A stretch of 63,805 nt of DNA, the filler included. It is 16 parts of 16 records of this genome, joined end to end, with 100 filler letters (N's around TTAATTAATTAA, not from the genome) between each part and the next. Parts side by side here need not be neighbours in the genome. Positions count along the whole stretch, not along the records: positions 37,497 to 40,085 come from SRR11831580_5634; 15 more parts are not named here. The stretch is one strand, 5' to 3'. Below, in pieces: positions 38,440 to 40,185 of the stretch. The notes below the pieces were generated by a model. It was given only the letters and a program-made list of their open reading frames with translations, did no database searches and was not told the origin of the DNA. The number at the start of each line of letters is the position of its first letter. Position 1 is the first letter of the stretch. The translations under genes and the position numbers were made by a program.

Positions 38440-39483
38440 TCTTTGTATAGCATGAGGACGCCGAACGTATTGCATGGAACGAGGAACACTACCCCACTGA
38501 GTTCCTCAACGCAACTGGAGACATGGAAGAGATCTTCCCCAACTACGCGTACATCTACTATTACTTGCGACACGGCTGCTACGCTCCAGGATTCCCAGAG
38601 GACAAGTCCTACCGAGCCAACTTTCGGCGCGACTGCAACAAGTTCGTTTACGATCGCCTGAAGCGTCGTTTGTTCATGGTGGTGAAACCTTTGAGCAAGA
38701 CTGGCGAAGCTACTCTGCTAGTGCCAGTGGCAGATGGACCCGAAGACGCACGCGCAGCGTTGTACAACTTGCACTACTGCACCACACTCAAACTGGGTAC
38801 CCACGACGGCGTGGTGCGCATGTGGCAAGCCGTCCGTCAACAACTTTACTTCCCGAATCAGTTCCGGTGGTGCGAACGCGTCTGCGAGGCGTGTGTCACC
38901 TGCTGTCAAGTGAAGGGTGGTAAAGTTGGAACCAAGCCACCCGTCAAAGCTATTCTTACCCGCAAGACCAACCACCGGGTACGCGTGGTTGTCGAGCACG
39001 GTTCGTCTTCTCAATTAACCTTTGCGCAGTGGACCGTGGACTTCACGCAGATGCCCCACGTCGACCGTGCGACTGGGTACCGCTACCTGTTGGTAGTGGT
39101 CGACCACCTGTCCAAGTACGTGTGGTCGGGCGGCTTTCCCACGGAGCACTGCCAGCCGGTCGTTGACTTCCTACGCAAGCTGTGGACCAGTGGCTTCAGC
39201 GTGCCGCACATTGTGGCGGCCGACAACGGCGCATCGTTCGTGGGGAAGGAATTCTGGAACCTGTGCCACGAGTACGGTGCCAAGATTGTTCACGGTCGCC
39301 CTCTCCACCCGCAGTCGCAGGGGGTGGTGGAAATCAAGAACCGCACCATCAAGGGAAAGATCGCGTGCATCCTCTTGGACGGTGACCAGGCAGGGGACAC
39401 GTGGTACCAGCACGTGGCTTGGCTCATCGCGCGCCTCAACAGCCAGCCGTCCGGCACTACGAGAATTGCGCCTGTTCGAGTAC

Positions 39484-39593
39484 GTTTGCTCATCGATGAA
39501 CAAACCTTTCGCGCGGTGGGGGGTTCTTGTTTGCTCATCGATGAGCAAACCTGCCTCTGACTTCTGCCTACGTTTGCTCATCGATGAGCAAAG
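39484..39593. repeat. Array of three 22-bp palindromes (starts 39484, 39529, 39572) with unique 23 and 21-bp spacers
   Basis: Read directly; the first and last copies each carry one mismatch; inside intron 39480-39628. Confidence 0.97.
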
Positions 39594-40185
39594 TTTCTTG
39601 TAACCGGTTCTGATCATATTTTCTACAGCTGATGTATCCAGACGCCCCGCCTCGCTTCCCCACTATACCTGGTCTGCCCACTCCGCGTGCTGTACGCAGC
39701 GGCTTGCAAGGCGATCAGCTGGAAGCACTGGCTGCCGACAACCAAGCTGCCAACGCACTGCGCTGGACGCAGCAGTCGGTGAACTTCCAGCCCTACCGGA
39801 AAGGAGAGCTGGTGTACGTCGCTACACCACACCGCAGTGGTATCAAGCGTGCGCCTGGTCAGGTGCTGTGGGGTGCCGCGGCAACCATCTACACCTACAA
39901 CGAACACGGCCACACCTACCGCCTCAAGTGGGTGACCGATGGCCACCTCGGAGAGTTGCCGGGTGGTCTGTCGATCCGAGAGTGGGGTCACGCCGACTTG
40001 AAGAAGGTCCCGTACGCACAGACAACGGACATCCTCCGCAACAAGGTTGTTCCCAGCATTGGCTACTCCCCGTCCCAGTTTGCCANNNNNNNNNNNNNNN
40101 NNNNNNNNNNNNNNNNNNNNNNNNNNNNNTTAATTAATTAANNNNNNNNNNNNNNNNNNNNNNNNNNNNNNNNNNNNNNNNNNNN

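Follow-up and report, generated by a model that had tools for sequence, protein, structure and literature searches.

The window, by which we mean the whole 63,805-nt stretch of DNA that was analysed, is a pseudo-molecule of 16 contigs whose joints are N44-TTAATTAATTAA-N44 linkers. One of these contigs (37497-40085) contains a gene for a gypsy-type integrase that is interrupted at 39480-39628, probably by an ordinary spliceosomal intron. Three copies of a 22-bp palindrome, GTTTGCTCATCGATGAGCAAAC, lie inside the interrupting interval and further copies lie elsewhere on the contig. The contig, the coding parts of the integrase gene and the signals of the putative intron are given below, with positions counted along the whole window.

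37497-40085, no strand assigned: non-bacterial contig that holds the finding; 2589 bp, GC content 0.547, flanked by two N44-TTAATTAATTAA-N44 linkers
38523-38978, plus strand: integrase coding exon with the H2C2 zinc-binding region, from the likely ATG (Pfam Integrase_H2C2)
39030-39479, plus strand: integrase exon coding for the DDE catalytic core, rve (Pfam rve; D, D and E columns)
39480-39628, plus strand: putative GT-AG intron, 149 nt, phase 0 (sequence reading, homology, junction register)
39480-39485, plus strand: donor GTACGT (sequence reading)
39610-39628, plus strand: branch-like CTGAT (39610-39614, A at 39613), pyrimidine-rich CATATTTTCTA and CAG (39626-39628) (sequence reading)
39629-40085, plus strand: exon 2, 152 codons long and still open where the contig stops, C-terminal SH3/chromo-like part (tblastn, profile)

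The integrase gene appears to be intact, as both Pfam domains score above cut-off and the DDE columns are invariant. The frame upstream of the intron (38451-39479) is open over 343 codons and matches Integrase_H2C2 with 28.6 bits (cut-off 25.5) and rve with 51.2 bits (cut-off 32.6), while the exon-2 frame is open over 152 codons. The catalytic residues D194, D234 and E270, numbered from the M at 38523, occupy invariant columns of alignment A2. This M aligns with the first M of the relative P0005 and its ATG is the likely start codon; a TATAG ending at 38450 could be a candidate acceptor upstream of the integrase.

An exhaustive HMMER search returned 11,157 relatives at E ≤ 0.001, the best of which are fragments with 52-57% identity from metagenome or run assemblies. 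When 33 relatives were scanned against Pfam, 12 contained reverse transcriptase (RT) or RNase H and 21 contained rve only, with or without H2C2 or Chromo. All scanned relatives that align over most of the query belong to the 21 without RT or RNase H. Using 159 relatives, including 12 with RT or RNase H, we obtained no credible high-scoring segment pair (HSP) upstream of 38451 (best E 0.046), where only 950 bp are present on the contig. Based on the Pfam content of the relatives and the lack of an RT-like HSP upstream, the protein is best described as a stand-alone gypsy-type (H2C2 plus DDE) integrase. It appears to belong with Ginger- or Polinton-like transposases or domesticated copies, a grouping that carries the caveat that many of the relatives are open reading frame (ORF) calls on short contigs. 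The label ‘transposase’ is plausible but unproven, since the element ends fall outside the contig. The pol gene of a long terminal repeat (LTR) retrotransposon was considered and rejected, as those 950 bp show no credible RT or RNase H homology. In a word-indexed protein search exon 1 gave a single match, to a fish retroelement, and exon 2 gave zero matches. Searches by protein for related loci found none in prokaryotic genome contigs or viral contigs, and by alignment A2 there are four related loci, all of them distant (26-31% identity).

The interval between the catalytic core and the C-terminal part carries a donor, a branch-like site, a pyrimidine run and an acceptor. A sequence-only reading had placed a GTACGT donor at 39480 and a CAG acceptor at 39628, enclosing 149 nt in phase 0, and this is exact on our reading of the sequence. 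The further details of that proposal hold as well: the interval contains three palindromes separated by 23 and 21 bp, the first palindrome shares two bases with the donor, the unspliced frame ends at 39560, and ATG codons are present at 38523 and 39632, the entries of the two ORFs that splicing was said to fuse. Exon 1 closes on a full codon (38451-39479 corresponds to 343 codons), which gives the intron its phase of 0. Exon 2 opens with CTG ATG TAT CCA GAC (LMYPD) at 39629, in the same frame as an ORF opening at 39614, and the branch-like A at 39613 is situated 15 nt ahead of the 3′ end of the intron. Without splicing the frame reads VRLLIDEQTFRAVGGSCLLIDEQTCL before it reaches a TGA stop at 39558-39560.

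Homology to other integrases is found on both sides of the interval, which supports the predicted fusion of two frames. Among the 149 relatives with any tblastn HSP, four (P0014, P0136, P0045 and P0070) also match the exon-2 frame. P0014 aligns with its residues 1-135 to 39096-39485 and with its residues 169-290 to 39713-40081. A profile built from 71 relatives matched the exon-1 frame as far as its model position 162 (188.6 bits) and the exon-2 frame at positions 191-290, starting at frame residue 34 (22.4 bits). An exon 2 that starts at 39629 leaves 28 residues for 28-30 model positions of the profile. Because MAFFT with --addfragments scattered the short and variable N-terminus of exon 2, we took the register at the junction from projected pairwise alignments. 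Up to the junction 78 of the 159 relatives align, and 63 of these 78 continue for more than 40 residues beyond it. At the four positions that follow the junction these 63 relatives carry, in turn, L (40 of them), L or M (33), F, H, W or Y (42) and G (43). Nine of them begin LM[FY] and four begin LMY, where exon 2 begins LMYP; the read-through sequence VRLL suits this register far worse. The restoration of an integrase motif by splicing, also claimed beforehand, is therefore borne out: L-M-Y coincides with the L-[LM]-[FHWY]-G of the relatives, which stands two residues past a conserved P.

The nearest relatives break at the very same column. P0153 (55% identity) reads KIAPAA/VRAHLSTL, where the slash marks the junction, and is then terminated by a stop, and P0002 and P0151 (52% identity, one 90% cluster) read KVVPSH/VRNHIL and end after 10 and 38 residues. 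In P0064 the junction column is followed by VRFTHQK and a stop, and P0016 and P0018 show a V-initial switch there and end after 24 and 14 residues. ‘VR’ is the phase-0 translation of GTACGT. From the switch to VR and the early stop at the junction column we infer an old and conserved intron position, which the genes of P0153, P0002, P0151, P0064, P0016 and P0018 would share. On these grounds 39480-39628 is well supported as a genuine intron. An intron in the integrase gene of a mobile element can thus be recognized from sequence alone, through ORFs of relatives that break at the same column.

The two upstream coding parts of the gene are separated by a further interval that is probably a small hidden intron.

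38979-39029, plus strand: candidate second intron, GTACGC...GCGCAG, 51 nt, phase 0, stop-free (alignment A1)

Being in frame and lacking stops, this interval is invisible to an ORF scan. It would add 17 residues, VRVVVEHGSSSQLTFAQ, which are missing from all 13 other relatives spanning the site in alignment A1. P0003 contains its own insert of 20 residues (VR...HTQ) at this site, and the ORF of P0005 ends directly after RVR there. The 51-nt candidate contains no palindrome.

The palindrome copies form three arrays, one of which lies beside a short ORF on the opposite strand.

39484-39505, no strand assigned: intron palindrome, copy 1, with a single G-to-A mismatch, covers donor positions +5 and +6
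39529-39550, no strand assigned: intron palindrome, copy 2, perfect
39572-39593, no strand assigned: intron palindrome, copy 3, with a single mismatch at the last base
38282-38439, no strand assigned: upstream array of four copies, spacing 45, 44 and 47, located 84-241 bp before the integrase ATG
37497-37593, no strand assigned: array at the contig start, two copies, spacing 75
37629-37864, minus strand: ORF of unknown family, 78 codons, no Pfam match, Atlas best score 0.78

Allowing up to 3 mismatches, the palindrome occurs 9 times in the window compared with 0.01 expected copies, and none of 100 shuffles reaches 9. All 9 copies are located on contig 37497-40085 and all lie outside the integrase coding sequence. 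Three of the 9 deviate by a single base, which in every case affects one half of the dyad only. The three copies in the intron are spaced at 45 and 43. The arrays have the palindrome alone in common, as their spacer sequences are unrelated. The first base of the contig coincides with the start of a palindrome copy.

The minus-strand ORF running from 37864 to 37629 ends at a donor-like GTACGT (37628 to 37623, minus strand) with TTCGA just before it, and the two-copy array comes after this donor-like site. The stretch with the two-copy array would be non-coding, although the minus-strand frame continues without a stop across both copies and on to the end of the contig. The 11-mer TTCGAGTACGT is common to the integrase donor (39475-39485, plus strand) and the minus-strand donor-like site (37623-37639). 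Another TTCGA is found at 38262-38266, 15 bp ahead of the upstream array; the shared TTCGA could be fortuitous, mark a target preference or be left over from palindrome halves that decayed. Two telomere-like TTAGGG units (38250-38261) directly precede the upstream array. The upstream array (38282-38439) and the intron array (39484-39593) bracket the zinc-finger and DDE exons, and these self-complementary arrays could pair across the exons if both are transcribed.

We found nothing related to the palindrome arrays in the collections searched or in a full-text literature search for their sequence. The exact palindrome had 0 matches in 185,579 prokaryotic species genomes and 0 in IMG/VR viral contigs, and the 18-nt palindrome core was found in no paper of the literature search. 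Metagenome contigs contained two single copies of the exact palindrome (L001 and L002), without arrays or an integrase. The copy in L001, a 98.7-kb contig, lies at 1913-1934, just upstream of a gene that read by eye as helix-turn-helix-like. This copy is probably an unrelated bacterial operator, and we judged both metagenome copies to be unrelated to the family on the integrase contig. After the junction, none of the 159 relatives has a peptide that the palindrome would encode (LLIDEQ or CSSMSK), which makes the palindromes look secondary; they look like later, lineage-specific additions to an older intron.

Folding of the palindromes as RNA gave single-copy hairpins of -6.8, -14.3 and -8.9 kcal/mol for intron copies 1, 2 and 3. 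The donor-adjacent hairpin of copy 1 is the weakest of the three and no better than shuffled sequences (z-score -0.62; 53 of 200 shuffles fold equally well), because its own single mismatch breaks the stem. The five pairs of neighbouring copies form perfect stems of 21-24 bp with loops of 21-25 nt and energies of -34.1 to -43.3 kcal/mol. These foldbacks have z-scores of -6.88 to -12.17, and in each case 0 of 200 shuffles are as good. The fold predicted for the whole intron (39460-39648) reaches -70.2 kcal/mol with a z-score of -5.83, again with 0 of 200 shuffles as good. In this fold the partner of copy 1 is copy 3, copy 2 forms a hairpin of its own, and G39480 and all bases from 39485 on are paired; the pairing of copies 1 and 3 would draw the donor near the branch region. 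An E-value scan of Rfam gave 26 matches, nearly all of them to microRNA (miRNA) precursor models and none at the gathering score (best 36.8 versus 63 bits). These sub-threshold matches are explained by the perfect hairpin shapes that neighbouring copies make.

The record from which the window derives mixes organisms. Its first contig matches E. coli K-12 strains at 100% identity, and most of the other contigs show 80-100% identity to G001, the nearest enterobacterial genome used. Contigs 21269-26840, 37497-40085 and 56679-58803 match neither E. coli K-12 nor G001. For contig 37497-40085 there was no megablast match among 5,426 complete E. coli genomes and no match in G001, and as part of the reading that we favour below it is probably a small eukaryotic contig assembled alongside enterobacterial DNA. 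The contig with the intron would then be a eukaryotic contaminant in a bacterial record, and eukaryotic contigs hidden in a mostly enterobacterial record matter to its annotators and users. Contig 53514-56578 is also without a match in G001, and its ORFs read as ordinary enterobacterial sugar-transport genes.

Contig 21269-26840 resembles, on its minus strand, a multi-exon eukaryotic gene in which ORF pieces alternate between frames. Runs of (GT)n occur within its apparent introns and at the contig end. GTACGT is present 9 times on the minus (apparent coding) strand compared with 3 times on the other, and GTAAGT has 0 occurrences on this contig. The first frame-keeping YAG acceptors, which are only candidates, lie 44-197 nt downstream of the GTACGT donors, and CTGAT precedes two of the candidate acceptors, at 23498 and 24062. 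Assuming a shared origin of the contigs, the GTACGT and CTGAT signals of the integrase intron would fit the other apparent introns of the source organism. Contig 21269-26840 matched neither a Pfam family nor a PDB sequence and has no relative with a name, and one of its exons gave zero matches in the word-indexed protein search. A literature search for organisms that use GTACGT donors produced no usable lead. On contig 56679-58803 there is a 232-codon ORF (56681-57376, minus strand) with a P-loop-like motif and without a Pfam family, which the Atlas places closest to clusters of fungal ‘hypothetical proteins’ (score 0.96), with Mucoromycota the commonest. Eleven ORF pieces of these other non-bacterial contigs yielded a single Pfam match, FN3_7, whose 16.9 bits fall short of the cut-off of 34.3 and which we took as chance, and PDB sequence searches with the same contigs gave nothing useful.

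Our preferred reading, to which we assign a probability of roughly 0.7, is that an ordinary intron sits at an old position in a eukaryotic stand-alone integrase gene, and that the palindromes are a later foldback repeat or binding sites which do not define it. According to this reading, 39480-39628 would be an ordinary U2-type, phase-0 spliceosomal intron at a conserved position, and splicing via GTACGT, CTGAT and CAG would fuse the catalytic core with the C-terminal domain. The three palindromes would be later, lineage-specific arrivals from the local 9-copy repeat family, whose neighbouring copies may form foldback units with a 22-bp stem and a loop of about 22 nt. They might represent a short foldback repeat resembling a miniature inverted-repeat transposable element (MITE), or a set of binding sites tied to the mobile element, and the family would persist solely where coding stays undisturbed. 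The palindromes would not set the limits of the intron, but might have an effect on its splicing. Overall, an intron of this sort is ordinary, and the curiosity lies in the palindrome arrays, which are undescribed. Should the palindromes bind a protein or yield small RNA, they would exemplify in compact form how a mobile element builds control sites into an intron of its own.

Several observations weigh against this reading. Residue 4 of exon 2 is P, compared with G in 43 of the 63 relatives, and P0014 and P0158 (43% identity) cross the junction unbroken, showing that not every member of the family has the intron. The late arrival of the palindromes is less certain than the peptide comparison suggests, as the read-through tails of the relatives are just 8-38 codons long and palindromes could still lie deeper in those introns; moreover, P0151 contains ‘GAHRW’, which might derive from a decayed palindrome copy. 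That all three non-bacterial contigs come from one source organism is an assumption. Finally, the 9 copies occupy 2.6 kb while none lies in the remaining 7.7 kb of the window's non-bacterial DNA, as would suit a functional site linked to the element, and the perfect state of 6 of the 9 copies beside unconserved spacers likewise suits a functional site rather than a passive repeat.

The last two observations lead to a tentative alternative, in which the arrays would be DNA-level sites for a dimeric protein, either the integrase or transposase of the element or a host factor, comparable to the subterminal repeats of transposons or to operator clusters at a promoter and within a gene. A perfect 22-bp dyad of which most copies are exact, a regular spacing of 43-47 bp and the position of one array just upstream of the integrase ATG would all be in accordance with this. 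The restriction of the copies to one contig and the coincidence of its start with a copy, such as assembly breaks within repeats would produce, also fit. However, one array lies mid-gene and not near an end, the termini of the element to which ‘subterminal’ would refer are beyond the contig, and the high identity of the copies equally fits recent spread or gene conversion.

It is unlikely that the palindromes control splicing, as a pre-mRNA hairpin or through a protein bound at the donor, such that intron retention would yield a truncated protein consisting of the zinc finger, the DDE core and 26 read-through residues. The position of copy 1 over donor +5 and +6, the strong fold of 39460-39648 with G39480 paired and the stop that a retained intron brings into the frame are consistent with such control. 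There is also a precedent for control of a transposase through one intron: in the Drosophila P element, full-length transposase needs the third intron (IVS3) to be removed and its retention leads to a truncated protein. Nevertheless, the hairpin at the donor itself is weak, the sole mismatch of copy 1 disrupts precisely this stem, relatives appear to carry the intron without a palindrome at the donor, and identical palindromes occur outside the intron too. We therefore do not favour regulation by a hairpin or a protein at the donor.

Rather doubtful is a broader proposal in which the arrays are an undescribed cis element of the integrase-bearing mobile element, placed at the promoter and in the intron, where hairpins or a dimeric protein would couple transcription and splicing to small RNA or autoregulation. 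It would include a palindromic ‘micro-foldback’ that colonizes pre-existing introns and does not create new ones. A model in which neighbouring copies act as foldback hairpins resembling miRNA precursors and release a self-complementary 22-nt small RNA, targeting every copy for silencing or feedback, seems improbable to us. The stable five-pair foldbacks with their perfect stems and the predominance of miRNA-precursor models among the Rfam matches point in this direction, and MITE-derived miRNA genes are known, as hsa-mir-548 derives from Made1 (PMC1784062). On the other hand, none of the 26 matches reached the gathering score, any perfect hairpin scores alike, and the source organism may lack Dicer.

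We give very little credence to the idea that a palindrome-bearing insertion broke the gene, leaving a pseudogene in which the GT...AG ends are coincidental. Repeats often insert into mobile-element genes, but this interval has a full set of splicing signals besides its repeats, its excision restores both the frame and the exact register of the motif, and the nearest relatives break at the identical column. In addition, the flanking frames are open over hundreds of codons (343 and 152) and keep the catalytic residues. A prokaryotic array of clustered regularly interspaced short palindromic repeats (CRISPR), or an assembly artefact, is scarcely credible: although short repeats are interspersed with unique spacers of comparable length in a mostly bacterial window, CRISPR arrays have repeats of at least 23 bp, are longer and occur in a prokaryotic context with cas genes, whereas here repeats of just 22 bp form arrays of 2-4 in and beside a eukaryotic-type integrase gene that needs splicing, the contig and the exact palindrome have no match in the bacterial genomes searched, and the adjoining contigs are unrelated enterobacterial ones set apart by linkers. 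The CRISPR array was accordingly rejected on the repeat length, the array size and the eukaryotic-type integrase as the sole recognized gene, no search for cas genes having been made.

Compared with known systems, the splicing-control model most resembles IVS3 of the P element. Control of IVS3 involves exonic pseudo-splice sites bound by host proteins, so that it is exonic and does not act via intronic palindromes. MITE-derived miRNA genes such as hsa-mir-548 are similar in that short palindromic units, once transcribed, give near-perfect hairpins of miRNA-precursor size; on the integrase contig each hairpin is built from two copies of a 22-bp palindrome and not from a single two-armed element.

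The gene itself is closest in organization to Ginger DNA transposons and the host genes derived from them, whose integrase-type transposase genes contain 1-4 canonical introns at conserved positions and phases (Bao, Kapitonov and Jurka 2010, PMC2836005). As in Ginger, a gypsy-like H2C2 and DDE integrase is found outside an LTR retrotransposon and is interrupted by introns. The passages on Ginger in that paper describe no palindrome arrays, in contrast to the arrays found here. Ginger1 and Ginger2 have terminal inverted repeats of 40-297 bp in the tabulated families, starting with TGTNR, and target-site duplications of 4-5 bp (PMC2836005). Of the GPY/F motif of Ginger1, neither GPY nor GPF is present in the exon-2 translation, which is open at the contig end. 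With this motif absent and the element termini outside the contig (37497, 40085), the integrase may or may not belong to Ginger.

With regard to the intron and its repeats, the introner elements of Amoebophrya offer the nearest parallel. As a class, introner elements are recognized by numerous nearly identical copies of a whole intron throughout a genome, with terminal repeats or duplications at the splice sites. Those of Amoebophrya contain hairpin-forming inverted repeats and have a predicted fold that joins the intron ends (Farhat et al. 2021, PMC7789003). They share with the integrase intron a repeated palindrome-forming sequence within an intron and an origin resembling a non-autonomous transposon. 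There, the whole intron is the repeat unit, with inverted repeats at the intron ends, direct repeats over the splice sites and mostly non-canonical boundaries (PMC7789003). The integrase intron, by contrast, would be canonical and at an old position, and only the 22-bp palindrome is repeated, between unrelated spacers and in copies that also lie outside the intron.

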